From the IMG/VR virus record IMGVR_UViG_2541047850_000015: a DNA stretch of 40,635 nt; one strand, written 5' to 3'. Of the stretch, positions 1 to 34,723 are shown one piece after another (position 1 is the first letter of the stretch; each line of letters opens with the position of its first letter). The translations under genes and the position numbers were made by a program. The notes beneath the pieces are model-generated. The model searched no databases and was not told where the DNA came from. It worked only from the letters and a program-made list of their open reading frames with translations. Source of the stretch: a virus. Taxonomy: Duplodnaviria; Heunggongvirae; Uroviricota; Caudoviricetes.

Positions 1-70
1 GAGTCTTGAGTCTTGAGTCTTGAGTCTTGAGTCTTGAGTCTTGAGTCTTGAGTCTTGAGTCTTGAGTCTT
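1..70. repeat. Perfect tandem heptanucleotide repeat (GAGTCTT)x10 on plus strand (AAGACTC on minus), truncated by the window edge
   Basis: Directly visible: ten identical 7-nt units from position 1 to 70. Confidence 0.97.
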
Positions 71-75
71 GACAT
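1..75 (-). CDS. neuO: 5' end (partial) of leftward gene whose reading frame runs into the heptad repeats; neuO-like phase-variable polysialic acid O-acetyltransferase candidate
   Basis: Minus-strand ATG at about 73-75 preceded by AGGA about 8 nt upstream, reading ATG TCA AGA CTC AAG ACT C... into the repeats; position just downstream of an endosialidase tailspike matches the described CUS-3 neuO locus. Rest of gene is outside the window. Confidence 0.5.
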   Translation of the reverse strand, partial: MSRLKTQDSRLKTQDSRLKTQDSRL

Positions 76-228
76 GTTAGTATCCTACGTTATTTTACCA
101 CTAGTTACTTTTCTTGTCATTAAAAAGCATTTAAATTTTTATATTTAATTTCGTTGACGTCAATGTTTTTTGCCAATGTACTTACTTCTTTATGTGAGCA
201 GTTCATATTTTTGACGCCAACGAAACAT

Positions 229-3174
229 TTAGTGCTTCCCTTCTATTAAGTCTAACCTAGCTTTTATTCTTTCTATTTCTCTGCGCTGCCATGCCGCCTC
301 GATATAGAATAAGAGATCAGGTCTGACCCCCCATCTAGATCCTGCTGGCGTTATTTCAACGCGCTCAATGATGTCTTCTATTACCATCACTGGATTATCA
401 TCCTCATCAACAATGATGCTCCCGTCATTATCAGTCAGCGGCATTTCCCTTTGGCCAGTAATGACGTCATCATATACTGCGGGATAATCGTCATAGCAAA
501 GAAAGGCATAGCGGCATGTTGTGCTTTCTTCTTCCATGAGTCCGTGAGAAATAAGAACATCACGAAGTTGCTGCGCGATTACACCATGATGTATCCTCGC
601 CCCTTCTTCCCCCTTTATAGCGACAGCGTTCAGCCATTTATAAGCGATATACCTGACGTCACCCCAGGCATCCAGCAATGCTTCGTCAGGAGAGACCGGC
701 TCTGTCTTTAATGTTCCGTCACTGGTAACCACAGGATTGGAGCCAAGATAAACTGTCGAGAACCTGTTTCCCGGACCACCAAGAGCATTTACATTATCAA
801 GATAAGGTTTAACATCTCCGTTCTCAAAAAGATGTTCGAGTGCGTTATATACCGCGCGACGTGGAGTACTGCTTCCGGAACCATGCAACGTTATCATTGC
901 ACCATCTGCTGAAGACGTTGTTTCACCGCCGCTAACGATTAATCTCTGAGCGGTAACATCATCAGACGGTACTTTCTTCGCAATAATGGCGTAATTACCC
1001 TCAAGTTTGACTTCCGCGCGAACTTGTCCTGATGTACCTGCATGGACAGTCAGTGACTGGACGGCAACATCATCTGTGAAATCAACGGGTACAGGAACCG
1101 TCCTCACGCCTGACGTCGACATAAAAGTAGGAAGCGTTCTGTTAGGAGTGGCTCCGTAGACAAAATCCCTTGAAACAAATTCTTCCTGTTTAATTTTCAC
1201 CCTGAAACAATACAAATCAGCCGGGTGACCATCGTGAACATAAGGATATTTTCTGTTGTTATCCCCTATGCTCCATGGGTTTAGAAAATCTTCCCCACCG
1301 AAAATGTAGTACAGCCAGTTGTCTTTGATACAAACTGAACCAACACCAACCGCAGAGTTAACTATTCCGCCCTGATAAATCTGATCAGTAACATTAACCC
1401 ACTCTACATTATCCAGACTCCACTCATTGACGTTAACTCTGGTCATAAATGTTCTTGGATAATTTCCTGCATAACGGTTATCAGGTTCTCCTCCTTCCCA
1501 CTCACCAAATGCGCGCTCACTGCCAAAAATAACCAGCTCATCGCCAACTTTGGCAAAAGGAAGGTTTGAGTGATGAACATTATTTGGGAAGCGAAGAGAA
1601 TTCCATGATGTACCTAAATCAGAGCTTCTGTGCAATGAACTACCGGGTTGAGTACTTAATGTCCCCCTGGTCGTCAGATACAGAATGCCATCATAATATT
1701 TTACACATGGCTCAGATGCATTCGCCTCATATTCTGCAGGTATGCGTCTGCGAACAAAGCTACCAGGAGAACCGAAAGCATCAGAGAAATAGAGTATCCC
1801 AAGCTCGCGTGGACCAATATCACCATTATGGTAGCCAACAGCAAAACTGTTATCGCTAATCGTCGCAAAACTGTGAATCTCAGTAACAGGAGTGCTTCCG
1901 TCAACAAAAGAAGGAATAGTTCCAAGACTGGTTTTTCTCCATGGTGACGAGTGAAATGATGTGCCAAAACTCCAGTATCTACCCTCGTTATTCTGATCCA
2001 CATCCTGGGTATTTTGCGTCGTAACTGTAAAGGTATTTTTATCAATAACAGTAGTCACCGTCATATTCCCGGTAACATCTGTAACACCAGAGTTTGAGAA
2101 GTTGACAAAATCACCAGCAAATAATCCGTGATCAGTAATGCGAATATAAGCGACTTGCTGATTTGCTGCTTTCGTTATACCACCATAAACGCGAAGGCTG
2201 CGACTCATTGGGCGATCCCACAACTCTGCAACCTGCAGTTTATTTCCTCTCACGGTCCGCGTCTCAATTACAGCAAAAAGGCGATTTCTGACAACCCCCA
2301 TACTCATGCAGTGATAGTTAACTGTGGGATAGTTTTCATGTAAATCTGTAAGCCATTCCGGCGTTGTCCAGGTCTTCCCGTCATCTCCTGAGCGAACCCA
2401 TGCAACATGGAGGTTATTTACACCATGGCGGTCTCCAGCCATAAAAGGCGCATAGATGACATTGTCATATACAAACGTTTTATCCTGCGTCCAGGCGTTG
2501 TACCACGGTGTATCTGTAATTTTAAATAACTCTCCCTGGATAAAATCTTCAGAAGCATAAAAAAGAGGCTGACCCGGTATTCTCTCAAATAAAAAACGAG
2601 CATTTTTAAATCGACTGACATCTGGAAGAGTTGATACTTTAAAAGTAAGCCCTCGCCCATCTATCTTTTCACCACCTGTTGCAACAGAAAGTAATTCTGA
2701 TAGAGCTGATGTATCATCATGAACACCATCACCAATAGCCCCCCAACCTCTTACATCATAACTGTCTCTCCATCTTGCTATCTGAAGTTTTGGGTATTTA
2801 TTCGCTCCATCTGGGTCTTCTAATTGCTGCCGTAGTTGATCTGGGTCATACTTCAGCACATTAGGAAAATAGAACTGCTGCGCACCATACGCATCATAAA
2901 CAGCCATAGAATGGCCTTGCACGGTAACGAATTTGGCAATCTGTCCGTTATATACAGGATATCCAGCAGCGTTAATGATGATTGGTTGAGAAACAGGAAC
3001 GTGAGAACCGTCTTCGTTCTCCACATAAGCCTGAATCTGGTTTTCAGGATTTACAGGGTCAGTATCAATTTTACCGATATAAATTTTGCCATTAGCTACG
3101 GCTTTAAAAGAACGCGCCATAGTGAAGAGTTGCGAAGGCATCGATACAATCACATTGGCTGTAATGTCTGTCAT
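229..3174 (-). CDS. Tailspike: P22 gp9-type N-terminal head-binding domain fused to an endo-N-acetylneuraminidase (endosialidase) domain with C-terminal intramolecular chaperone domain
   Basis: N-terminus [10 protein letters not shown]...[11 protein letters not shown]...VLKYDPDQ closely resembles P22 gp9 N-terminus; two Asp-box motifs ([16 protein letters not shown]) typical of sialidase beta-propellers; C-terminal about 150 aa resembles the self-cleaving chaperone domain of K1F/K5 tailspikes. Confidence 0.85.
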
Positions 3175-3296: not shown

Positions 3297-4220
3297 TTAA
3301 AGTTTTATTGAGTGGCACGCTCTATCACGTATCGCTGCGAATGAAGCTATCTCTTTAAGTGCCCAGCTTTGCTCAGCCATTAAATGGCGAAGTGCTTTTA
3401 GTTCAGCTCTTACTGCTGAAACGTCATACCCCGCTTTTGTCAGAATATTGATTAGTTTATACGCCGGACTGCATTCAACGAGTGCGCTGCGGTCAAGAGC
3501 AACAGTATCACCGCATTGCTGCCTGATAATGGCGTAAGGTGCATTTTCAGCAAACCATGAAATCGGGAAGTTAATATCCAGTTTTGGCGCTGGTAACTCT
3601 TCTTGTTTGCCAATGAACTCACCTTCAAGTGGAACTCGAGCTGCAAGTGACAGTGCTTCGGTGAACTGCTCCTCACTGATTTCTTTGTACGAACATCCAA
3701 AATGGGATTTCAGTGAGGACCACATGGTGATCATCGCCTTAGCCTGTTTTTCTTTTGGCAGAGACTGACCGCGACTCATGACGAGTTGTTTAATGGCTTC
3801 CTGCTGTTCAGTGGTGATTTTACCCGGCAACGCCTTTTTAGCTTTGCGTGGGTTAACTACATGACCTTTAGTCCAGTACTCGTATAGCACATCGTCACAC
3901 TCTTCCTGATACTGGATTACCTTGTCGCGGATTTCAGGACGGACTTTGTTTGGCTGAATGCTTGAAAGCCAAGCCGCAAACTTACGAAAGGCAAGGCATA
4001 TCATTAACTGTTTACCGCCAGCAGAAGGTATTTCGATTTCCGAAATACCTTTGACAAATCTCTGTTTTAATTTAACAAATTGAGCAGCCCAAACCATACC
4101 CATGCCTTCTACAACGGGTTTCATAGGAACGTAAGGTTCATTGTTAATGCTGACCAAAAAGAGATTTGTTCCGTGGAATGGAACGTTGATTGTATGTTCT
4201 GCAATTGCTACACTCGTCAT
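3297..4220 (-). CDS. ant: Antirepressor Ant (P22 Ant-like, AntA N-terminal domain plus KilAC-like C-terminal region)
   Basis: 307 aa, position downstream of arc in immI, size and organisation like P22 Ant (300 aa). Confidence 0.8.
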   Translation of the reverse strand: MTSVAIAEHTINVPFHGTNLFLVSINNEPYVPMKPVVEGMGMVWAAQFVKLKQRFVKGISEIEIPSAGGKQLMICLAFRKFAAWLSSIQPNKVRPEIRDKVIQYQEECDDVLYEYWTKGHVVNPRKAKKALPGKITTEQQEAIKQLVMSRGQSLPKEKQAKAMITMWSSLKSHFGCSYKEISEEQFTEALSLAARVPLEGEFIGKQEELPAPKLDINFPISWFAENAPYAIIRQQCGDTVALDRSALVECSPAYKLINILTKAGYDVSAVRAELKALRHLMAEQSWALKEIASFAAIRDRACHSIKL

Positions 4221-4283
4221 GTCGTTAATTCCTATGCGTGGTTTTACGATACCGAAGCCCTGACTGTTACCGCAGTTGGGGCT

Positions 4284-4505
4284 TCACTGTTTTTGTAAGT
4301 CACTGTAGCTATAAAGCCACTGACCACTCATTTTTGATTTGATTGACTCTACTGAATCACGGCAAGGAATGATTCCGCCTGACATCATTCTGATCTCCGT
4401 AAATTCACCACTCCTTATCGATTCAATGCCATCAATGTTAACTAAAGATTTACCTCTACCAAGTGCATTCTCATAGCCAATCTCATCAACCTCAATAAAC
4501 CTCAT
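4284..4505 (-). CDS. Hypothetical 73-aa protein inserted between arc and ant, start overlaps arc stop (ATGA)
   Basis: ORF in track; GAGGGG upstream; translational coupling to arc. No recognisable family. Confidence 0.45.
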   Translation of the reverse strand: MRFIEVDEIGYENALGRGKSLVNIDGIESIRSGEFTEIRMMSGGIIPCRDSVESIKSKMSGQWLYSYSDLQKQ

Positions 4506-4660
4506 ACCGTTATCCCCTCTCTCTTCAGGCTGTCCAACACTCGCTTGTAAATCTCAGAGTTAACAGATCGCCCGTTCTCTTCCGCCACCTTACGCACCAA
4601 ATCCAATACTTCTTTAGGCCACCGCAAATTGAACTGCGGCATTTTGCTCATTCCTTTCAT
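4502..4660 (-). CDS. arc: Arc repressor (ribbon-helix-helix)
   Basis: MKGMSKMPQFNLRWPKEVLDLVRKVAEENGRSVNSEIY... is near-identical to P22 Arc; start moved to internal ATG (about 4660) because upstream ORF-track extension would cover the operators. Confidence 0.92.
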   Translation of the reverse strand: MKGMSKMPQFNLRWPKEVLDLVRKVAEENGRSVNSEIYKRVLDSLKREGITV

Positions 4661-4674
4661 ATTTACCTCACAAT

Positions 4675-4723
4675 ATAGGTCCACCGTGGACCTATTGAGA
4701 ATATAGTAGAGTGCTTCTATCAT
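4675..4723. promoter_or_regulatory. immI control region: Mnt operator palindrome (about 4675-4695, TAGGTCCACCGTGGACCTA) and Arc operator (about 4703-4723, ATAGTAGAGTGCTTCTATCAT) with divergent Pant/Pmnt promoters
   Basis: Perfect 19-bp palindrome seen in sequence; second site matches the P22 arc operator as I remember it; located between divergent arc and mnt starts. Confidence 0.8.
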
Positions 4724-4750
4724 GTCAATACACTAACTTGGGGTGATGGC

Positions 4751-5005
4751 ATGGCTAGAAACGATCCGCACTTTAACTTCCGTATGCCTTTGGAAGTAAG
4801 AGAAAAATTGAAATTAAGAGCAGAGGCTAACGGAAGGTCAATGAACTCTGAGTTATTACAAATCGTTCAGGATGCTCTCTCAAAGCCATCACCGATTGCA
4901 GGCTATCGAGACGAAGCTGAACGCTTGGCTGATCAGCAAGCAGAGCAGTTCAAGGCCGTTGTGTTTGAGACACTTAAAAAGATTTATGGCAAGGATGATA
5001 AATAA
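4751..5005 (+). CDS. mnt: Mnt repressor
   Basis: MARNDPHFNFRMPLEVREKLKLRAEANGRSMNSELLQIVQDALSKPSP... is near-identical to P22 Mnt. Confidence 0.92.
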   Translation: MARNDPHFNFRMPLEVREKLKLRAEANGRSMNSELLQIVQDALSKPSPIAGYRDEAERLADQQAEQFKAVVFETLKKIYGKDDK

Positions 5006-5541
5006 TGCTGCACACAATTCATTTCTTATGCCCCGTTAACACTGCCACTGTTGGGCAACTTCAGAACCACTGTCTCACCGCATTATCTCAAGGCGCAACT
5101 GAATTAAATATCCATATATCAAGTCAGGGAGGGGAAACTGCCGCTGGCTTTACTGCGTATAACTTTCTTAAGTCACTCCCTGTTACCGTTAGAACTCACA
5201 ACATAAGCAATGTTGAATCCATAGCTAATATCGTTTTCCTGGCTGGCTCAGAACGTTTCGCAAACCCATTATCAAGATTCCTGTTACATCCTCTATTATG
5301 GTGCTTTGCCTCCCCAGCCGCCGACCATGCCAGATTGAGAGAGTACGGGAAATGCCTCGATAACGATCTTGATCGCTTCGTTGAGACGTTCAATATCGAC
5401 ATCGGAACCCATATTAGGTGGGCATCCCTGATAGCAGACTCGACCATTTTGGATGCTAACAAGGCTCTTGAGCATGGCATAATTAATTCCATAAAAACCG
5501 CAAGGCTGGCATCCAATCAGGCAAACTGGTGGGTTGTTTGA
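5005..5541 (+). CDS. ClpP-like serine protease-domain protein (178 aa), translationally coupled to mnt (TAATG overlap)
   Basis: Alignable by eye with ClpP: ISSQGGETAAGFTAY / VSTIC..S..A / RF..P.SR...H; candidate Ser-His-Asp triad positions retained (ESIAN, LLHPL, ADSTILDA). Not in the head module. Confidence 0.55.
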   Translation: MLHTIHFLCPVNTATVGQLQNHCLTALSQGATELNIHISSQGGETAAGFTAYNFLKSLPVTVRTHNISNVESIANIVFLAGSERFANPLSRFLLHPLLWCFASPAADHARLREYGKCLDNDLDRFVETFNIDIGTHIRWASLIADSTILDANKALEHGIINSIKTARLASNQANWWVV

Positions 5542-5566
5542 TGGGTAAATCATGAATACTCCTTAT

Positions 5567-5597
5567 AAAAAACCCGCGATTAAGCGGGTTTGATTAG
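5567..5597. terminator. Bidirectional hairpin terminator between convergent ClpP-like gene and ORF6N gene (CCCGC-GATTAA-GCGGG flanked by A/T runs)
   Basis: Hairpin with T-rich tracts on both strands in the 75-nt convergent intergenic gap. Confidence 0.5.
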
Positions 5598-5616
5598 CAA
5601 TAATCTATCCTTTTGG

Positions 5617-6474
5617 TTAAAAAAGTTTTCGAAGATCTACGCCATACACAGCAAGCCAAGCATCGCGAGGCCATGACTTAACTGAGCCAAAGCGTGGGTC
5701 GTTGACATCATGTGGGGTGACGTCATTCTCCCGGCACCACTTGCGAAGAGGCTGCCATTTGAATTTCTGCCCCAGCTTCTTTTCTACCGGGATAATGGCG
5801 GCGTAGTTCTTTCCTTCCCCTACCCGTTCAGCTAATTTGTTTTTGGCGCGGACGGCTGCTGATGCGGTAGCCATTGCTGTAGCTTCGCGTTTTGCTGCAA
5901 TCCACAACTTTTCTTTTACCGCTCTGTCGCGCTGTTGCTCAAGAAGCCGATTCTCTTTGACCTTTAGAAGTAAATCTTCCAGAGCCTGCTCGTATGTCTG
6001 CGGTAGGATGCTTTTTACCAAGGGACGGAAGTAAGCATTTTCCAACCGTTCGAAGAAAGACCATGCTTCGTCTGTATCGACAATTTTCGACATCCGCGCT
6101 GCGCCCTTCTCCGTCCACAAAACAATTGAACGAGCTTTGTTCGAAATTTGTGCGTGACTATTAGTCACTCGCAAATTCTTCAACTCTTGGCCTTTAATAG
6201 TGAAGATGTGAATTCCTTCAATGAAGCGTCCAGCATTGCGTGACAGGTTTTTCCGAATGTTAGCCTCATCCGTACCATAACCTGAAGCCAGCGTTTCAGT
6301 CGTAACAACACGTAAACCCTCCCATTCAATCACTGGAAGCGGCTGGGGATCGACATTTGGCTCATGAACTGCTAAATTTAATAAAGTCATTGGTTGGACC
6401 CTTATGACAAGTTTCAATGAAAGCCGGTAGCTCGTAACTGTCGGCTTTTCTTTTTGCACCGTCCTGTGCGTCAA
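5617..6474 (-). CDS. Antirepressor-like protein with ORF6N-type N-terminal domain
   Basis: Motif LPVIEWEGLRVVTTETLASGYGTDEANIRKNLSRNAGRFIEGIHIFTIKGQEL typical of ORF6N domain; track start is TTG, an alternative ATG lies about 6390. Confidence 0.6.
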   Translation of the reverse strand: MTHRTVQKEKPTVTSYRLSLKLVIRVQPMTLLNLAVHEPNVDPQPLPVIEWEGLRVVTTETLASGYGTDEANIRKNLSRNAGRFIEGIHIFTIKGQELKNLRVTNSHAQISNKARSIVLWTEKGAARMSKIVDTDEAWSFFERLENAYFRPLVKSILPQTYEQALEDLLLKVKENRLLEQQRDRAVKEKLWIAAKREATAMATASAAVRAKNKLAERVGEGKNYAAIIPVEKKLGQKFKWQPLRKWCRENDVTPHDVNDPRFGSVKSWPRDAWLAVYGVDLRKLF

Positions 6475-7206
6475 TCAGTGAATCCATTCCTCACCGCGAA
6501 GCATTGCCAACATTGGCTGCGCATGCTTCACGACAATATTGCTGTTATCCAGTTCCTGTACTTCACGAAGCAGGATCTTCTTGGTTTCCACAGTCATATA
6601 ACGAATGTCGTGGGCGATGTCGTATAGCATCCCTGCGTATTCTGACTTAGCCTGTTTCATTGCCGGGTAAAGTTGCTGGCTAACCCGCTGGCTCTTTTCC
6701 ATCCAGAGCTGGAGATAGCAAAGGCTGATTAACTCATCATCTGTGAACTGTTTGGCGATCGGTGAATCCGTGGCTTCACGATCCAAAATATCCAGCACCC
6801 AACGGCGGAACTCTTTGGCCTTGGGCGTAGAAGCAAACATCGCCACCAAGTGAGCGCCTCGGAGTGAGTAAACTCTGACCGATTTGTTACGTAAGCTATT
6901 GTTTATCCCGTTGACACTCATATTGAGGGTCAATGACATTGAGTCGGAAAACTCATCAGCATTACGGGCATAAATTTGGCTGATGGCATCAGTTTTTTTA
7001 TAGCCGAGAGCCTTAGCTAGTTCGGTGGAGGTAAACCAGATAGACCCGCCCTCTGTTACTGGGTTAAAGGTGAATCCTTGGAAGTTGTAATCTGATTTTG
7101 CTACAATATTCATATCGATATTTCCGTCGTAGGATTTGTTCGATACCGAAGCCTGACGGTCTAGCCACCGTTGGGCTTCAACGTTTTTAATGGATGATAA
7201 TTTCAC
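6475..7206 (-). CDS. Bro-N domain antirepressor-like protein (probable true start at ATG about 7113)
   Basis: FTSTELAKALGY...VRVYSLRGAHLVAMFASTPKAKEFRRWVLDIL matches Bro-N domain; track start is GTG at 7206 and would overlap the upstream small ORF. Confidence 0.6.
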   Translation of the reverse strand: MKLSSIKNVEAQRWLDRQASVSNKSYDGNIDMNIVAKSDYNFQGFTFNPVTEGGSIWFTSTELAKALGYKKTDAISQIYARNADEFSDSMSLTLNMSVNGINNSLRNKSVRVYSLRGAHLVAMFASTPKAKEFRRWVLDILDREATDSPIAKQFTDDELISLCYLQLWMEKSQRVSQQLYPAMKQAKSEYAGMLYDIAHDIRYMTVETKKILLREVQELDNSNIVVKHAQPMLAMLRGEEWIH

Positions 7207-7360
7207 CTTTCTTCTCCATATCCATGACCTTAGCCATAAAGAAATCGATCATCCCCTGAGTCGAGCGGTAGCTTTTAGCTGCGTTACTTTCCAAAAACTC
7301 ACGCACTTCAGCACTTGGGCGGTAGGAGATAGGCTTGATATCTTTTTTCTTCTGTTCCAT
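7187..7360 (-). CDS. Small 57-aa protein, predicted ribbon-helix-helix-like regulator (first gene of the antirepressor operon)
   Basis: Hand-translated MEQKKKDIKPISYRPSAEVREFLESNAAKSY...; GAGGTG RBS 5 nt upstream of ATG; strand-helix-helix pattern by eye. Below ORF-track size cut-off. Confidence 0.4.
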   Translation of the reverse strand: MEQKKKDIKPISYRPSAEVREFLESNAAKSYRSTQGMIDFFMAKVMDMEKKGEIIIH

Positions 7361-7457
7361 TATTCACCTCATGTAGTTTTGTTATTCAATTGCTCAATCT
7401 TCAACATTAGGTTAGTACCAGACTAATATTGAGTCAATGATTTTTTAAGGTGCAAAT
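7361..7457. promoter_or_regulatory. Divergent promoter/operator region of accessory switch; imperfect inverted repeat CAATTGCTCAAT ... TATTGAGTCAATG
   Basis: 97-bp gap between divergent starts; inverted repeat seen by eye. Confidence 0.35.
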
Positions 7458-8318
7458 ATGAGTTTTGATGATTCTTTTTCTAAACGAGTTGCCATAGCGC
7501 GCAACTCCATCGGTTTGACTCAATCCGAGCTTGCTAAGAAAGTAGGCGTGGTATCCAGACAGATCGCTGCTTACGAGGGCGGGGAAGCCAAGCCAAGAGA
7601 AAAGGCACTTCAAAACCTTGCGGCTGCATTGGGAACTACCACTGAATGGCTTACGCAAGGGAAAGGAGATGGCCCTGACGTTAGCAGTGTCAAGAGAACT
7701 GTTACTGTGCGCGAGATTCCTGTGCTAACACACGTACAGGCAAGATTTGAATCGCTAGATGATTTACTAAAGACTGCTGCTATAAAGGACTTTATTCCAG
7801 CCCCTCCTGAAGCCAATGAATACTGTTTTGCCGTTGAAATACAAGGAGACTCCATGTCTTCCGGTGATGGGATTAGCTTTCCTCCTGGAACAATCGTAAC
7901 TTTCGATTCATCGCTAGAGGCTGTTTCTGGTGACTTTGTGATGTGTGTGCTGAATGATGATTCTGAGGCTACATTTAAGCAGCTTATACTGGATCAGCGC
8001 CAAATCTACCTTAAGCCACTTAACCCTTTATACCCTATGTTCCAACCTGATTTTATCGAGGTTGTTGGCGTGGCTATTCATTCTCAGTTCCGAATAAAGA
8101 GGGAAAAACTTATCTCTCCAATGCCGCATAGCGAAGTAGAGAAACTGGTTGAAGAAGCACACAAGGTTAGCCAAGATTTTTGGTCAAATGCAAAATTTGA
8201 CAAGAATACACCCTTTGACGAACGTCTTAAGCGACTAGATGAAATTGCTGAGCGCCTTGAGAAATTTGCTAACTACAGCCTTTCACAGGCCCGTTATAAA
8301 CACTCACCAGACAAGTAA
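7458..8318 (+). CDS. cI/LexA-like repressor: N-terminal HTH (XRE) plus S24 peptidase domain with about 75-aa C-terminal helical extension
   Basis: HTH segment GLTQSELAKKVGVVSRQIAAYEGG; S24 motifs GDSM and FKQL...KPLNP; AAGGTG RBS. Confidence 0.7.
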   Translation: MSFDDSFSKRVAIARNSIGLTQSELAKKVGVVSRQIAAYEGGEAKPREKALQNLAAALGTTTEWLTQGKGDGPDVSSVKRTVTVREIPVLTHVQARFESLDDLLKTAAIKDFIPAPPEANEYCFAVEIQGDSMSSGDGISFPPGTIVTFDSSLEAVSGDFVMCVLNDDSEATFKQLILDQRQIYLKPLNPLYPMFQPDFIEVVGVAIHSQFRIKREKLISPMPHSEVEKLVEEAHKVSQDFWSNAKFDKNTPFDERLKRLDEIAERLEKFANYSLSQARYKHSPDK

Positions 8319-26839: not shown

Positions 26840-27126
26840 GACTTAATCTTCCCCTCCTTCAGCAGTATCGCCTGCGTCCTGATCACGCCTTCGAGGTGGT
26901 AAAGTCTGGCGTCTTTGTTGTCGAGATTATGGGTGCGTCGGTCGATTTCATCGTGACACGCGCTACAAGCCCATGCGCCGATCAGGTCGTCAGGCTTCAT
27001 TCCCGTTCCGCAAATTCCAGCCATCCGGTAATGTGCCAGAACTGTAGTTTCAGGATTGCCATTGCATACGCCGTAAATACGTACCTGGCATTCTCTGCCG
27101 CGCGCTTCTTTGCGTAGGTTAGCCAT
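26836..27126 (-). CDS. YbcO-like (DUF1364) Cys-rich putative nuclease of the nin region
   Basis: 96 aa with Cys cluster (CQVRIYGVCNG...CGTGMKPDD...CSACHDEID), position between ninE-like region and rusA. Confidence 0.5.
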   Translation of the reverse strand: MANLRKEARGRECQVRIYGVCNGNPETTVLAHYRMAGICGTGMKPDDLIGAWACSACHDEIDRRTHNLDNKDARLYHLEGVIRTQAILLKEGKIKS

Positions 27127-27331
27127 TTACCTTCCCTCGCAATTGAAGAATTGACTGAAGGTCTTTTTTAATAAATATGCGAGTGCGAATTGAGCAGTAG
27201 TTTTCCTTCATTCTGGCGTAGTAATAGTCTTTTCTTTGCTTAAGCTTGTTGGCATCCGCTGTCATCCAGTCTTTTACAGCAAACTTAATTAACCAGCGGT
27301 GGCAGAGATACCATTTCAGGTAATCACTCAT
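27119..27331 (-). CDS. Hypothetical 70-aa nin-region protein
   Basis: ORF in track; start overlaps NinF stop. Confidence 0.4.
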   Translation of the reverse strand: MSDYLKWYLCHRWLIKFAVKDWMTADANKLKQRKDYYYARMKENYCSIRTRIFIKKDLQSILQLRGKVNG

Positions 27332-27500
27332 CGTCTTCTTCCTCGTACATTGAGCTATTCGGATCGCTCATCAGTTCTGCGCAGCAGTGCTCACACACGT
27401 GAACTTCCAGCACATGCAGCTTCTGACCGCAGTTAGCGCACGTTAAAGCTCGCTCGACGCTTTCTTTCTGGTATTGAATGGATTGGGATGGGCTAAGCAT
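27324..27500 (-). CDS. ninF: NinF
   Basis: Hand-translated [58 protein letters not shown], matching lambda NinF as I remember it. Below ORF-track cut-off. Confidence 0.7.
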   Translation of the reverse strand: MLSPSQSIQYQKESVERALTCANCGQKLHVLEVHVCEHCCAELMSDPNSSMYEEEDDE

Positions 27501-27858
27501 TATTGGCGTCCTGCATCATGAGAAAGACAATCATGGCAGCGCGGAGTGGGTTTTCATCTTGAGTCATATGATATGGGGTACTATCACCGCCAACTTTTCT
27601 ATGCGCTGCCTTCCATAATCCATTTTCTGGTGCTGGAATAATTCCAATTCTGTTCTCTACGATAATCGGCTCTGCGTCTGATGGGCTTTTACAGTAATCA
27701 ACCGTTTTTATTGCATAACCAGTTTCGTCATCCCACTCAACACCAACGATTGATGTTCCCAACTTTGCGATTTCGCAATCTTCGGGAGCAAATCCACAGC
27801 AAATTGCCACTCGCTTGTTAATTTCAAAATCACTTAACTGTGAATAATCCATTGTCAT
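27493..27858 (-). CDS. NinX-like protein (start moved to ATG overlapping NinE stop)
   Basis: Position between ninE and ninF as in P22 ninX; identity by synteny only. Confidence 0.45.
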
Positions 27859-28028
27859 TTCCTCGCACGATGTCTTAGCCACCGGATATCCCACAGGTGA
27901 GCCGTGTAATTGAAGGTTTTTACGTCAGATTCTTTTGGGATTGGCTTGCGTTTATTTCTGGAGCGTTTCGTTGGAAGGTATTTGCAGTTTTCGCAGATGA
28001 TGTCGGTGATACTTCGTCGCTGTCGCAT
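27855..28028 (-). CDS. ninE: NinE
   Basis: [57 protein letters not shown] resembles lambda NinE; track ORF extended upstream. Confidence 0.7.
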
Positions 28029-28555
28029 CATGCCGCTCTCCTGACGCCCCGCCCGATCGTCATCAATGTCGCTTTGGATACGGTAGTAAACATCCGTCGA
28101 GGACTGATGAACGGTCGCCAAATCAGCAGCATGGAACCTTTGCTGTTTCCCTTCTTCTCCAACCCTGTCGATGGTTCGATAAAATTAATCCGTCCATCAG
28201 TAATGATGCGAACTTCGTCAACACTCTCCAGAGCCTTGCTGAACCATCCGACAGACATATCCTCTGGCACAAGCATCACTATCGTCTGTCGCTGTTGTAT
28301 GCACTGCTCAGCGGCTTTTTCCACCCACGGCCTGATATTGCTGTACGGTGGGTTATTCCAGATTGCACCGTGGCTTTCCCACTCAGAATTGAGCGCGTCG
28401 TCGGCCTCAGTTAGCCAGTGAGCACACAGAGCATTTTTGTCGCTCGCTGCCGAATCCAGCCAGAATCCAAACTCAATATCCAGTGCATCAAAAAGCCAAA
28501 GCGGCGTTTGCCAGCAGTCCTTGTCGTGTGCTGGCGTATTTGATTTGATAGTCAT
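28028..28555 (-). CDS. DNA N6-adenine methyltransferase (phage Dam-type)
   Basis: NPPY motif (IWNNPPYSN); probable start [18 protein letters not shown]... overlapping NinB stop (ATGA). Confidence 0.7.
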
Positions 28556-28992
28556 GCTGCCCGATCTCCCCATCGCGTTTTCCATTCGAGAGCCAGTCGC
28601 GCTTCGTCTGACCACTTAACGCCACGCTCTGTACCGAATGCCTGTATAAGCTCTAATAGCTCCGCAAATTCGTTTACACGCATCCTGCTGGTTGACTGGC
28701 CTATTACCACAAAGCCATTCCCGGCAAGGTTAGGAACAACGTCCTGCTGCTTTAATGCTGCGGTAAACACACACTTCCAGCTTTCTGCATCCAGCCAGCG
28801 ACCATGCCATTCAACCTGACGAGAGACGTCACCAAGGCAAGCCCAAAGCTTTCGATTCTGGTCTAAGCTGCGGTTGCGTTCCTGAATGGTTACTACGATT
28901 GGTTTGGTTGGGTCTGGAAGAATTTGCTGTACCGCGTGAATAGCGTTTTGCTGATGTGCTGGAGATCGAATTTCAAAGATTAGTTTTTTCAT
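28552..28992 (-). CDS. ninB: NinB (Orf-family recombination mediator)
   Basis: MKKLIFEIRSPAHQQNAIHAVQQILPDPTKPIVVTIQERNRSLDQNRKLWACLGD... near-identical to lambda NinB; start moved to MKKL. Confidence 0.88.
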   Translation of the reverse strand: MKKLIFEIRSPAHQQNAIHAVQQILPDPTKPIVVTIQERNRSLDQNRKLWACLGDVSRQVEWHGRWLDAESWKCVFTAALKQQDVVPNLAGNGFVVIGQSTSRMRVNEFAELLELIQAFGTERGVKWSDEARLALEWKTRWGDRAA

Positions 28993-29068
28993 GACTTCCC
29001 TCTCCCCCAAATAAAAAGGCCTGCGATTACCAGCAGGCCTGTTATTAGCTCAGTGATGTAGATGGTCA

Positions 29069-30520
29069 TCAGAATCCTCCTTTCTTCTTGGACTGCGGTT
29101 CCTCGCGTTCACGGCGGCGCATTTCAGCAGACTGTTGGTCTGTGTCATAAATAGCGCCATTTGCCTGAATGCAATACACCGTGCCGGTATTGCCATGACG
29201 ATTGAGACGAAGGATTAGTTCGGTTTCACCAGGTGGAACACTGTCATCAAAAGCACCTTCACGATGGATCCCCACCCAATAATCGCAATCCTGTTCAATC
29301 TGCCCTGTATCTCGTGAGTCACTTGGTAATGGGCGTTTATTGGTTCGGCTTTCCAGTGCGCGGTTAAGCTGTGTCAGAAGCACAACAACGCAATCAAGCT
29401 CTTTGGCAAGGTTCTTCAGTCCTTTGGTGATCATGCCGTAAGCAAGGTCGTTGCGATCGGCCTTTTCAGCGGTCATTAGTGTCAGGTAATCGACCAGAAT
29501 CATGCCAACACATCCTTTTTCTCGCTTGATTCGACGGCTTTCGCTGACGATTTGAGCCAGAGATAATCCCGGCGTGTCGTCGATGTAAAGCATGTCGATT
29601 TCACTCAAGCGATTGGCTGTTTCGATCGCCCTGTTGAAGTCACCATCGTAATCACCCTGATAGCCGTCATCGGCGTCATTTGTCGCCGGAAGGTAAAAAA
29701 TATTCGGGTTAACACCAGACTTCTGCCCTACCAGTTTTTCCAGTATCTGATCACCTGGCATTTCAAGGCTGAACATCAATGCGGGCTTTTTCTCATGCAC
29801 TGCGCAATTGATTGCCATCTGGCTGTATAGCGTCGTTTTCCCCATCTTAGGGCGAGCGCCAATGACAAACAGAGAGCCTTTCACCAGACCTTTCGGTGAC
29901 AGCATCCTGTCCAGCGATGGGATCCCTGTGCTCATTCCTCGTTGTTCGCCTGACGGGTCAAATCGCTTCTCAAGGTCGCTAACCCAGTCTTCCATGACCT
30001 CACCAAATGAGCGAAGGCCGCGACGCGATCCGGTTTTTGCATGGTCTGTCAGTTGCGTGAAAATCGCCTGAATAGCTTCGTACTTCTGCGTTGCAGTCAT
30101 TCCGTTGCGGGAATAGAGCAATTCCGTCGCTTCAGTCATGCGGTTGATGGCGTAGCGTTCCATTGCGGTTTCACGAACCTGCATTGCATAGGCAACGATG
30201 TTTGCGGCGCTTGGCGTGTTCTTTGCGATCTCAGCGATATAAGCAAAACCGCCAACAGACGCCGTTAACGATTTACGCTCCAGTTCATCGAAAAGCGTCA
30301 GGCCATCTACTGGCTTTTGCTCCCGGTGCATTCTGGTTATTTCTTCGAAAAGGATTTTGTGTGGCCGGCTGTAAAATGAGTCAGGCTTCAGCATCGCCAG
30401 AACTTTCTGGACGCGCTCACTGCTGTCATCATCCAGAAGCAATCCACCAATCACCGCCTGCTCTGCCTCGATGCTATGGGGCGGCGCATAAAAATTATCG
30501 GTCATCGTGTTCACCCTCAC
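29069..30520 (-). CDS. Replicative DNA helicase (DnaB family, P22 gp12-like)
   Basis: Walker A GARPKMGKTT, DnaB-type N- and C-terminal regions; overlaps upstream initiator stop. Confidence 0.88.
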   Translation of the reverse strand: MRVNTMTDNFYAPPHSIEAEQAVIGGLLLDDDSSERVQKVLAMLKPDSFYSRPHKILFEEITRMHREQKPVDGLTLFDELERKSLTASVGGFAYIAEIAKNTPSAANIVAYAMQVRETAMERYAINRMTEATELLYSRNGMTATQKYEAIQAIFTQLTDHAKTGSRRGLRSFGEVMEDWVSDLEKRFDPSGEQRGMSTGIPSLDRMLSPKGLVKGSLFVIGARPKMGKTTLYSQMAINCAVHEKKPALMFSLEMPGDQILEKLVGQKSGVNPNIFYLPATNDADDGYQGDYDGDFNRAIETANRLSEIDMLYIDDTPGLSLAQIVSESRRIKREKGCVGMILVDYLTLMTAEKADRNDLAYGMITKGLKNLAKELDCVVVLLTQLNRALESRTNKRPLPSDSRDTGQIEQDCDYWVGIHREGAFDDSVPPGETELILRLNRHGNTGTVYCIQANGAIYDTDQQSAEMRRREREEPQSKKKGGF

Positions 30521-31385
30521 GAACTTTCAGGTAGGTATTATCGTTAAGCAGGAAATCAAATCCCTTTTTGTGCCAGACGGTTCCGCGTTGATGGTTTGTG
30601 CGCTCTTCGAACATCCATCGGCAATTTTCGCCAACGTAGCTCAAATAATTTCTCCAGTCCTGCATCGTGAACCCATGCCCGTCAAGCTGGCGGGTTATCA
30701 CTCCGGCTTTGCGCCAGAACGTTCGGATCTGGTTTTTACGCTTGTCATTCAGTGCGCGGATTCTTGGCGCTTCAGGAAGGATTTCGTGGTAAGCATCGAC
30801 AACATCCTGACAGCTAACGGAAGGTTTTTTCTTGTCAGACTTTTTGTCTGCTGTGGCACTCTCTAATACGTCAGTATTAGAGATATTATTTATATTATTG
30901 TTTATGGACAACCGTTGGACAACCGTTGGACAATCTCCGCTGAGAGCCGCGCCATTACTGGTGTTTGCGTTGGACAACCGTTGGACAACCGTTGGACAAT
31001 TTTTTGCCTGAAAATCGTCATATTTAACGATTGTAAACAGGCTAAATTTCTTCCCCATCGAGCAAATATTAAGCATACCTTTCGACTCAAAAGTCCGTAA
31101 TAAGCTCCGAACTTTGTTGTCGGGGATGAATGTTTCTCTGACCAGCGACGGGCGTCCAGTTATCATCTGACCGCGATCAACAGTTATCGGACCGATATCC
31201 GTATTGACGACAGTAGATTCGTGATTAGCCTTGAGGATTAAGTGAAGCCAAAGATGTACTGCCTGAGAGTCCTTATAGAGCCTGCTGTCCATAAACTGGC
31301 GGTGTATAGAGACATACCCCATACTGGATGCCTCCTGATGTTGTACAGGGTTATGCCTGTAATCAGCTAACTTAACGACGCCCAT
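30495..31385 (-). CDS. Replication initiator (O-like / replisome organiser) containing the origin iterons; probable true start at internal ATG about 31321 with AGGAGG RBS
   Basis: Position between cII and helicase; internal DNA repeats produce repeated peptide CPTVVQRLSN; start ambiguity noted. Confidence 0.75.
   Translation of the reverse strand: MGVVKLADYRHNPVQHQEASSMGYVSIHRQFMDSRLYKDSQAVHLWLHLILKANHESTVVNTDIGPITVDRGQMITGRPSLVRETFIPDNKVRSLLRTFESKGMLNICSMGKKFSLFTIVKYDDFQAKNCPTVVQRLSNANTSNGAALSGDCPTVVQRLSINNNINNISNTDVLESATADKKSDKKKPSVSCQDVVDAYHEILPEAPRIRALNDKRKNQIRTFWRKAGVITRQLDGHGFTMQDWRNYLSYVGENCRWMFEERTNHQRGTVWHKKGFDFLLNDNTYLKVREGEHDDR
30870..31000. repeat. Origin-like iteron cluster: about six direct copies of an 11-bp unit (TGGACAACCGT) in two blocks plus adjacent AT-rich tract, inside the initiator gene
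   Basis: Seen directly at about 30905-30932 and 30971-31000; AT-rich segment about 30871-30900. Confidence 0.75.
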
Positions 31386-32190: not shown

Positions 32191-32307
32191 ATGCCCTCCA
32201 TAGTAACCATGAAACAATAATACGATATGTACTTTTGGAATGCAAACAAAAAATACATCTTGTGCATGGATGGTTTTAGTACAGAGCGTAATAATAAGGA
32301 TATGAAA
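32191..32307. promoter_or_regulatory. OR region with divergent pR/pRM promoters and operators (individual operator sites not resolved)
   Basis: 117-bp AT-rich gap between divergent cro and cI starts. Confidence 0.6.
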
Positions 32308-32961
32308 ATGAAATGGTATGAACTGGCTAGATCCAGAATGAAAGAACTCGGCATAACTCAAGAGAAGTTAGCTGAAGAGCTTGGTATGACGCAGGGTGGA
32401 ATTGGTCACTGGTTGCGCGGATCTCGTCATCCATCTCTTGACGAGATTGGTGTGGTGTTTAAATACCTTGGTATTGATAACGTCTCATTCAACCACGACG
32501 GTACATTTTCACCTGTTGGCGAATACTCATCTGCCCCGTTAAAAAAACAATATGAGTACCCTGTTTTTTCTCATGTTCAGGCCGGGATGTTCTCGCCTGA
32601 GCTTAGAACCTTTACCAAAGGCGATGCGGAGAGATGGGTCAGCACAACCAAAAAAGCCAGTGATTGTGCGTTTTGGCTTGAAGTTGAAGGTAATTCCATG
32701 ACCGCACCAACAGGATCCAAGCCAAGCTTTCCTGACGGGATGTTAATTCTCGTTGACCCTGAGCAGACTGTTGAGCCAGGTGATTTCTGCATAGCCAGAC
32801 TTGGTGGTGACGAGTTTACCTTCAAGAAACTGATCAGGGATAGCGGTCAGGTGTTCCTACAACCACTAAACCCGCAATATCCAATGATCCCATGCAATGA
32901 TAGCTGTTCCGTAGTAGGGAAAGTTATCGCCAGCCAGTGGCCTGAAGAGACATTTAGTTAA
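32308..32961 (+). CDS. cI: Prophage repressor cI (P22 C2-like, HTH plus S24 autopeptidase domain)
   Basis: C-terminal domain [13 protein letters not shown]...[28 protein letters not shown] resembles P22 C2; start chosen at second ATG (MKWYEL) with AAGGA spacing; track start 32227 is probably too long. Confidence 0.88.
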
Positions 32962-33374: not shown

Positions 33375-33683
33375 ATGACGGTAATCGTATGCGGGAAATC
33401 AACATTTGCAGGAAATGCCAAAACTCGCCGTCATGAGCGGCGCAGAAAGCTGGCTATTGAGCGTGATGCTATCTGTAACATCATTGATTCTATCTTCGGC
33501 ACAGACAGTGAGGAACCTGTTCAGAAAGGCACGAGAAAGCGTTTAAGCCTTTCTGAAAAAGCAATATCACTCGGCAACATTCGTAACCAAAATACCGACG
33601 AATGCAGTGGAAGTATTTGCCTGCCAAACGTAGCTCTTTACGCAGCAGGCTACCGGAAATCAAAACAACTGACAGCGAGGTGA
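33375..33683 (+). CDS. N: Antiterminator N (P22 gp24-type)
   Basis: Arginine-rich motif GNAKTRRHERRRKLAIERD near N-terminus, as in P22 N peptide. Confidence 0.9.
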   Translation: MTVIVCGKSTFAGNAKTRRHERRRKLAIERDAICNIIDSIFGTDSEEPVQKGTRKRLSLSEKAISLGNIRNQNTDECSGSICLPNVALYAAGYRKSKQLTAR

Positions 33684-33704: not shown

Positions 33705-34244
33705 CTAAATTAGCTCATCAGCTTTACCAGCAAAGCGCATATAACACTCATGGAACCAGACGTCAGGTATAACAAATTTCTCTTTACCTGACGCGCTGTA
33801 AGTCACACCTGAGCGATGGAGAAGGCCTTTTCTCATAAGAGATAAAGCGACCGGATCGCCGTGCTTAAGTACGATTTTGTTATTTGCCATAACAGCAAAT
33901 GCTAAAACCTCTTTTTCCTGAATACCCAGAGAATTGAACAGGCGCTCAGTCTCCACAATTACTTTGGCCTCATCTCTCTTACTGAGATATTTTTTATATC
34001 TGTCTGAAGATGCCAGAAATATAAACTCCATCACCCTGTTCAGAACATAACTGATACACAAAAGCATTGCGTAATACATCCAGTGATCTGGAAGTATTTC
34101 GGGGTTCCTTATATCTACCCACTCTTTAATTGATGCTGGGGTGATTATTATCAAGGCAATTAAAATAATAAGCATATGAATTAACTGTTGTAGCGTAAGA
34201 CCACGCAGGAAGAAACGTAACAGTTCCTGCCACCAGTTACTCAT
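33705..34244 (-). CDS. sieB: Superinfection exclusion protein SieB (start moved to MSNWWQELLRFF...)
   Basis: N-terminal MSNWWQ..LLRFFLRGLT and TM segments typical of SieB; track ORF has long upstream extension. Confidence 0.7.
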   Translation of the reverse strand: MSNWWQELLRFFLRGLTLQQLIHMLIILIALIIITPASIKEWVDIRNPEILPDHWMYYAMLLCISYVLNRVMEFIFLASSDRYKKYLSKRDEAKVIVETERLFNSLGIQEKEVLAFAVMANNKIVLKHGDPVALSLMRKGLLHRSGVTYSASGKEKFVIPDVWFHECYMRFAGKADELI

Positions 34245-34522: not shown

Positions 34523-34723
34523 ATGACTACGACTATTGATAAAAATCAATGGTGTGGACAATTCAAACGATGCAATGGATGCAAGCTGCAATCGGAATGC
34601 ATGGTTAAGCCTGAAGAAATGTTTCCTGTAATGGAAGATGGGAAATATGTCGATAAATGGGCAATACGAACGACGGCAATGATTGCCAGAGAACTTGGTA
34701 AACAGAACAACAAGGCTGCCTGA
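34523..34723 (+). CDS. ral: Restriction alleviation protein Ral
   Basis: 66 aa MTTTIDKNQWCGQFKRCNGCKLQSECMV... matches lambda Ral as I remember it. Confidence 0.75.
   Translation: MTTTIDKNQWCGQFKRCNGCKLQSECMVKPEEMFPVMEDGKYVDKWAIRTTAMIARELGKQNNKAA

Follow-up and report, generated by a model that had tools for sequence, protein, structure and literature searches.

What does the dam-like gene between ninB and ninE of a lambdoid phage encode, which sequence does its product modify, and what might the phage gain from it? We addressed these questions for IMG/VR record IMGVR_UViG_2541047850_000015, a stretch of 40,635 nt from a virus of the class Caudoviricetes, which was analysed as a whole and is called the window here. 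The product of the gene is an orphan N6-adenine DNA methyltransferase of the phage PF05869/TIGR01712 family, and this enzyme identity is secure. The best explanation of the locus as a whole, which we hold to be highly probable, is an orphan S-adenosylmethionine (SAM)-dependent enzyme encoded by an allele of VT2-Sakai orf32 and most likely converting GATC to G(m6A)TC (m6A, N6-methyladenine). An earlier note on this DNA had proposed such a gene, with an NPPY motif, at 28028-28555. These coordinates proved exact when compared with the open reading frame (ORF) and its translation, and the motif is present at residues 68-71. The gene and its motifs are as follows.

28028..28555, minus strand: dam-like gene, from ORF and translation; PF05869 / TIGR01712; ortholog of VT2-Sakai orf32.
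28343..28354, minus strand: catalytic motif IV, N68-P69-P70-Y71; the reverse complement AACCCACCGTAC encodes NPPY.
28442..28465, minus strand: motif-I-like segment F31-W-L-D34-S-A-A-S38; first strand of the Rossmann-like sheet, presumed to be SAM-binding.
28502..28519, minus strand: N-terminal family signature D13-C-W15-Q-T17-P18, from conservation in the homologue alignment.

The ORF is uninterrupted, with 528 nt and 175 amino acids (aa) between an ATG at 28555..28553 and a TGA at 28030..28028 on the minus strand. In Pfam, its product matched PF05869, 'DNA N-6-adenine-methyltransferase (Dam)', with an E value of 1.7e-64 and 217 bits (cut-off 28.1), residues 4-169 aligning to profile positions 1-167 of 169. 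The NCBIfam equivalog TIGR01712, 'phage N-6-adenine-methyltransferase', was matched from end to end (profile 1-165 of 165) at 260.9 bits against a cut-off of 97.05. Further matches were to phrog_111 in PHROGs (E 1.5e-86) and to two PADLOC 'orphan methyltransferase' models (E 1.4e-19 and 6.2e-17); those to PADLOC MTase_II were weak and partial (E 3e-7 and 4e-6).

Conservation was read from an alignment of the protein with 34 homologues of 58-96% identity (35 sequences). All of its 46 invariant columns are intact in this allele. N68, P69, P70, Y71 and S72 are invariant, as are F31, L33, D34 and A36 of the motif-I-like F-x-L-D-x-A and T17 and P18 of the N-terminal signature, in which D13 and W15 are at least 90% conserved. 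The DxWxTP and F-x-L-D-x-A-A segments are common to T1 Dam and M.Phi93DAM. By analogy with class I methyltransferases, the motif-I-like segment is presumed to bind SAM. The earlier note had let its proposal depend on a SAM-binding motif in profile searches; with the profiles matched over their whole length and the F-x-L-D-x-A and NPPY columns invariant, the proposal is not refuted. A longer, 195-aa reading from a GTG at 28615 was rejected as unsupported, because each of the 34 aligned homologues has its start at MTIKSNTP or a few residues from it; the extension occurs in no homologue and would run into the end of ninB. Opposite dam, on the plus strand, there is a 174-aa ORF (window 27897-28421), most probably a shadow ORF of the coding strand.

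From the homologue alignment, AlphaFold gave a confident model (predicted local distance difference test, pLDDT, 84.1; predicted template modelling score, pTM, 0.84), a single alpha/beta domain with a SAM-methyltransferase fold of class I (Rossmann-like). One of its strands consists of residues 31-36 (pLDDT >80), and NPPY comes after strand 64-68. The solved structures nearest to the model are N6-adenine methyltransferases. PCIF1, the eukaryotic cap m6Am writer, was the closest, M.TaqI, M.BseCI and E. coli Dam (EcoDam) scored nearly as high, and MmeI, type I HsdM subunits and CamA came next; Foldseek gave the same picture of the fold. As modelled, then, the protein folds like a SAM-dependent N6-adenine methyltransferase. 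The order of the motifs, I before IV, and the match to M.TaqI suggest a gamma-like core without a recognition domain, for which the model leaves no room, as its first strand and its NPPY strand are only ~27 residues apart. Profile matches, identity to VT2-Sakai orf32 and predicted fold agree on the N6-adenine methyltransferase that the earlier note had placed in the nin region.

That note had also called the enzyme Dam-type. The term suits its name and target, but not its family, which is PF05869 (the Dam of the phages T1, HP1 and VT2) and not PF02086 (MethyltransfD12), the family of EcoDam, T4 Dam and DpnM. No match to PF02086 was found in Pfam, where only PF05869 was matched at E <=0.01, and neither phmmer nor profile searches matched the protein to the PDB chains of EcoDam, T4Dam and DpnM. 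Structural likeness to these enzymes is confined to ~105-107 core residues at 8-10% identity, and they have a target-recognition domain, whereas the 175-aa protein is without one. What relates it to host Dam is a common target, not family membership. It does not belong to the MT-A70 type either (for example M.EcoPA8orf6770P), having NPPY as its motif and no MT-A70 match in Pfam. Identity with the 'prophage-encoded rRNA methyltransferase' of Shiga toxin (Stx) phages (PMC10810198) was rejected, as that protein has DPPW and is of the MT-A70 type.

Concerning the target, 170 of the 175 residues (97%) are identical to orf32 of the Stx2 phage VT2-Sakai. The differences (E60V, I92V, T163A, T166A and R169Q) are conservative and all lie outside the invariant columns. 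In VT2-Sakai, orf32 sits between the nin146 (ninB) and nin60 (ninE) homologues, and we take it to be the cloned M.EcoVT2Dam. A near-identical ortholog was reportedly cloned and characterised by Radlinska and Bujnicki in 2001. In a passage of PMC6602927 with reference to Radlinska & Bujnicki 2001, M.EcoVT2Dam 'is known to target 5'-GATC-3'', and near-identical copies of it have been reported in 933W-type phages, Phi24B and HK97. M.EcoVT2Dam and the present enzyme share the length of 175 aa, the ninB-dam-ninE slot, the overlaps with both neighbours and the Pfam family with a near-identical score. They differ in their carriers, an Stx phage there and a P22-like, K1-capsule-specific CUS-3-like phage here, in which the adjoining ninB allele is lambda-like, not VT2-like.

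More distant relatives point to the same site. T1 Dam (M.EcoT1Dam, ST20) has the PF05869 domain and the DxWxTP, LDxAA and NPPY motifs, and the DNA of T1 and TLS is GATC-methylated; at 34% identity, however, T1 Dam is longer (237 aa), with an N-terminus extended by ~45 residues and additional sequence inserted ahead of the last strands. M.Phi93DAM, from the Lactococcus 936-type phage Phi93, is likewise an orphan PF05869 member (E 6.3e-34) with NPPY, and single-molecule real-time (SMRT) sequencing and DpnI/DpnII digests revealed G(m6A)TC and protection from DpnII. It is 32% identical and 140 aa long, and its gene lies in the packaging module. The host of Phi93 is without Dam and may carry DpnII-type systems, which gives the enzyme a clear protective value there, unlike here. 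Taken together, the 97% identity to orf32/M.EcoVT2Dam and three distant GATC-modifying members of the family (T1 Dam, M.Phi93DAM and M.Btr190III) strongly favour GATC as the target.

The surroundings of the gene bear on how it is expressed and how it came to its place. Its neighbours are:

28552..28992, minus strand: ninB, upstream, 146 aa (PF05772, E 3.5e-54).
27855..28031, minus strand: ninE, downstream, 58 aa (PF05322, E 2.9e-44).
27493..27858, minus strand: ninX (DUF2591), after ninE (PF10765, E 1.3e-21).
29017..29040, minus strand: strong intrinsic terminator, tR2-like, after the helicase gene and just ahead of ninB; 8-bp stem with 6 GC pairs, then TTTTATTT.

The end of ninE was corrected to 27855..28031, from ..28037. 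The dam ATG shares an ATGA with the ninB TGA (plus strand tcat, 28552-28555), the dam TGA shares one with the ninE ATG (tcat, 28028-28031), and a third joins the ninE TGA to the ninX ATG (tcat, 27855-27858). Thus ninB, dam, ninE and ninX (27855-28992, minus strand) form a chain of four genes with three identical ATGA overlaps, the arrangement expected for translational coupling. Coupling of the gene between ninB and ninE, as claimed earlier, is therefore matched by overlaps at both ends and by neighbours confirmed in Pfam. NinF follows NinX (Pfam E 1.8e-12), with an 8-nt overlap between the two genes. Some database clusters also contain Dam fused to a neighbouring domain, for example Dam+NinE of 233-235 aa (41 and 12 members) and Dam+PF05269; a lost stop codon, a frameshift or gene calls reading across the ATGA junction are the probable causes.

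With lambda, the window is homologous upstream of ninB and through it (95.6%) as far as the ninB stop, and again from 13 nt into ninE onwards (97%), so dam replaces ninC and ninD precisely. The slot is the same, but its content is unrelated: NinC is like a PAPS (3'-phosphoadenosine 5'-phosphosulfate) reductase, and NinD is a small protein of unknown function. This is a textbook case of a mosaic module exchanged at gene boundaries. The gene of Pectobacterium and Edwardsiella prophages is 73-79% identical, has the same 175-aa length and occupies the corresponding region, with the replication genes on one side and Q or the lysis genes on the other. Its immediate neighbours are different ones (DUF1367/NinF/NinG; RusA), which indicates that the dam module moves independently.

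The terminator is likely to function as tR2, given the position of tR2 in lambda. N (33375..33683), the cI-like repressor (32227..32961) and the replication genes are all in their expected places. The gene lies in the rightward early operon; with the tR2-like terminator upstream, this arrangement makes dam probably a delayed-early lytic gene that needs N antitermination. In Phi24B, dam (listed as 100% identical to the VT2-Sakai protein) belonged to a set of five CMAT-identified genes that were followed by quantitative PCR. Profiles tied to the lytic cycle were seen for four of these, the exception described being CM18, not dam, and dam expression changed significantly upon induction. These data are consistent with delayed-early lytic expression.

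The dam methyltransferase is an orphan, as the earlier note had it: no restriction enzyme gene adjoins it, its own best PADLOC matches are the 'orphan methyltransferase' models, and the adjacent endonuclease that defines a type II restriction-modification system is missing. From the DnaB-like helicase to Q, the ORFs encode NinB, Dam, NinE, NinX, NinF, a 70-aa product, YbcO, RusA, NinH and Q. Among these neighbours of dam, the search for a partner nuclease or defence context gave no PADLOC match, and within 3 kb of dam there is no unassigned ORF of nuclease size. The 70-aa ORF (27119-27331, minus strand), between NinF and YbcO, is without a Pfam or PADLOC match.

At a threshold of at least 95% identity, the 528-nt gene occurs in 1562 of 5426 complete E. 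coli genomes, with up to five copies per genome, and five of the complete genomes hold a 100% identical copy. The E. coli copies lie between NinB and NinE and are annotated by PGAP as 'phage N-6-adenine-methyltransferase'. Among phages, the ninX-to-ninB segment (window 27800-29050) had a nucleotide match in 433 records, including Sf101, many lambda-like isolates and Stx phages, and the protein matched 1951 records. The gene is thus already known, a common, pre-annotated member of a known family in its usual place, and the value of the finding lies in annotation and little in discovery. Selection on dam is strong and purifying. The ratio of non-synonymous to synonymous substitution rates (dN/dS) against the VT2-Sakai allele was 0.15, from 9 synonymous and 5 non-synonymous changes. 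In the comparison with the genes of Pectobacterium and Edwardsiella, synonymous sites were saturated (proportion of synonymous differences, pS, ~0.75), with a non-synonymous proportion (pN) of 0.14-0.18.

What the phage gains can be put forward as a model. Production of the enzyme would await N-mediated antitermination, in lytic growth or on induction, and would proceed through coupled translation. As in the structures of M.TaqI and EcoDam/T4Dam, the target adenine would flip into the pocket formed by NPPY and receive its methyl group from SAM. In dam+ cells, lambda DNA becomes methylated only in part. Rapidly replicating phage DNA, thought to be under-methylated by host Dam, might in this way have its GATC methylation topped up, a model suggested by this partial methylation, by the lytic timing and by the DpnII protection through M.Phi93DAM. 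Packaged genomes would be fully methylated as a result and could be protected against m6A-blocked GATC enzymes of the DpnII/MboI type; full methylation might also avoid the effects of unmethylated or hemimethylated GATC, namely MutH nicking and SeqA binding. Phage DNA from this element should then be methylated at every GATC, sensitive to DpnI and resistant to MboI/DpnII. For the lambdoid enzyme, a part in anti-restriction or in regulation is plausible. The function of phage Dam enzymes is described as 'still not well understood' (PMC7556043), and an EcoSal review lists regulatory roles (P1 pac) and calls the in vivo role of T4 Dam unclear. The prophage adds a second potential GATC methylase, whose contribution methylome studies cannot tell apart from that of host Dam (PMC6602927).

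GATC is depleted in the window: it occurs 96 times, where base composition predicts 157 sites and a Markov model 202 (observed/expected ratio, O/E, 0.47). GGCC (O/E 0.43) and CTAG (0.44) are similarly depleted. T1, a virulent phage that also has a GATC methylase, is far less so, and its genome is not strongly GATC-depleted (O/E 0.78). The sites are not significantly clustered anywhere, be it at an origin, a pac site or operators; the densest 1 kb, inside the helicase gene, has 8 (P = 0.39 by simulation), and a site-specific regulatory role thus finds no support here.

Several points weigh against the best explanation. The equation of orf32 with M.EcoVT2Dam comes from background knowledge and the record note 'similar to DNA methylase', not from the original paper. 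M.Btr190III, a relative of T1 Dam, methylates GATC plus significant fractions of related sequences when cloned. PDB searches with the protein and with the 35-sequence profile gave nothing meaningful (best E 0.2-0.9, designed proteins and SdiA), so that the fold assignment rests on the predicted model, and no solved structure of the PF05869 family was found among PDB chains by sequence or profile. In the model, the details of the SAM site are uncertain, given the ~27-residue spacing in a family without a solved structure. Moreover, GATC is already host-methylated in dam+ E. coli, and the usual hosts have Dam, so the anti-restriction benefit in a dam+ host is unclear. The phage has also not relaxed its GATC avoidance despite its own methylase.

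Four other explanations were weighed. The enzyme could have a relaxed specificity, broader than GATC, and serve as a general anti-restriction device protecting many sites. The behaviour of M.Btr190III would fit this, as would a single-domain protein that is modelled without a separate target-recognition domain, and non-specific prophage adenine methyltransferases of another family exist in E. coli (M.EcoGI/GII). The near-identical enzyme, however, is reported to be GATC-specific, four family members at 32-97% identity all have GATC as their main site, and strains with two VT2-type copies, which may be silent in lysogens, show no extra methylome motif attributable to these copies; we regard a broader specificity as improbable. 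A better though still rather unlikely case is that the role under selection is regulatory, with GATC methylation tuning lysogeny stability, induction frequency, replication or packaging. PMC3342100 cites Murphy et al. 2008 for a requirement of host Dam in stable 933W lysogeny, Dam methylation at pac is a need of P1, and a part in regulating the viral cycle has been proposed for many orphan methyltransferases (EcoSal review); that all usual hosts have Dam further weakens the argument from protection. Against this stand the unclustered GATC sites (at most 8 per kb), the nature of dam as a dispensable mosaic module whose slot holds ninC and ninD in lambda, and the nin position, which predicts no expression in the lysogen. 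Direct evidence for a regulatory role was not found in the searchable literature.

An RNA or single-stranded DNA substrate in place of duplex DNA is hardly credible: PF05869 members have been shown to protect DNA from DpnII and to sensitise it to DpnI, M.TaqI, M.BseCI and EcoDam score almost equal to PCIF1, and the rRNA methyltransferase of Stx prophages, which needs a partner subunit, is of another family. Equally remote is an inactive remnant carried along by mosaic recombination. Lambdoid phages can generally dispense with dam, which lambda does not have, and truncated and fused variants occur among the database clusters; this allele, however, has the length of the characterised ortholog, all 46 invariant columns and a dN/dS of 0.15, and the protein is strongly conserved at saturated synonymous divergence. 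This minimal methyltransferase, modelled without a recognition domain and with PCIF1 as its nearest solved relative, might also hold something unusual, be it its mode of GATC recognition (for example as a dimer, or by the conserved DxWxTP segment and loop 121-140), a second substrate or a regulatory role in induction or lysogeny. We give this little weight; if true, it would explain why a redundant-looking enzyme is found in more than a quarter of E. coli genomes.

The rest of the element fits the description of a mosaic phage with accessory genes. Both ral (34523..34723, plus strand, 66 aa, PF11058, E 1.6e-48) and sieB (33705..34244, minus strand, PF14163, E 1.5e-19) are present, as the earlier note had stated, and several accessory genes related to restriction or exclusion do occur in the element. 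Of the right-hand 25 kb of the window, CUS-3 covers only 48% and no phage record more than 58%, which marks the phage as a mosaic. The tailspike gene (229-3174, minus strand, 981 aa) encodes P22 head-binding and endosialidase domains (beta-propeller, E 1.4e-232) and an S74 chaperone, and by sequence the phage is a K1-capsule-specific, CUS-3-like phage of the P22 type. The left end opens at base 1 with a perfect heptanucleotide array, GAGTCTT x 10.3 (window 1-77); the minus strand reads ATG TC(AAGACTC)n, that is, MSRLKTQDSRLKTQ. We take it to be the phase-variable 5' repeat of neuO, the polysialic-acid O-acetyltransferase gene of the K1 prophage CUS-3, and the left end of the window looks as if it cuts the phage's own neuO just after its start. 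At the right end there is no integrase-sized ORF. An immI-like accessory region spans window 3297-8318:

3297..4220: antirepressor-type gene, P22_AR_N.
5005..5541, plus strand: ClpP-like ORF.
5617..6474: antirepressor-type gene, ORF6N.
6475..7206: antirepressor-type gene, Bro-N/P22_AR_C.
7458..8318, plus strand: second repressor, of the LexA/S24 type with a helix-turn-helix, besides the cI-like one.

The replication-initiator gene (30495..31385) had no Pfam match. Inside it, at window 30905-30999, lie perfect 11-bp direct repeats, TGGACAACCGT x2.6 and CGTTGGACAAC x2.9, which are probably the iterons of the origin.
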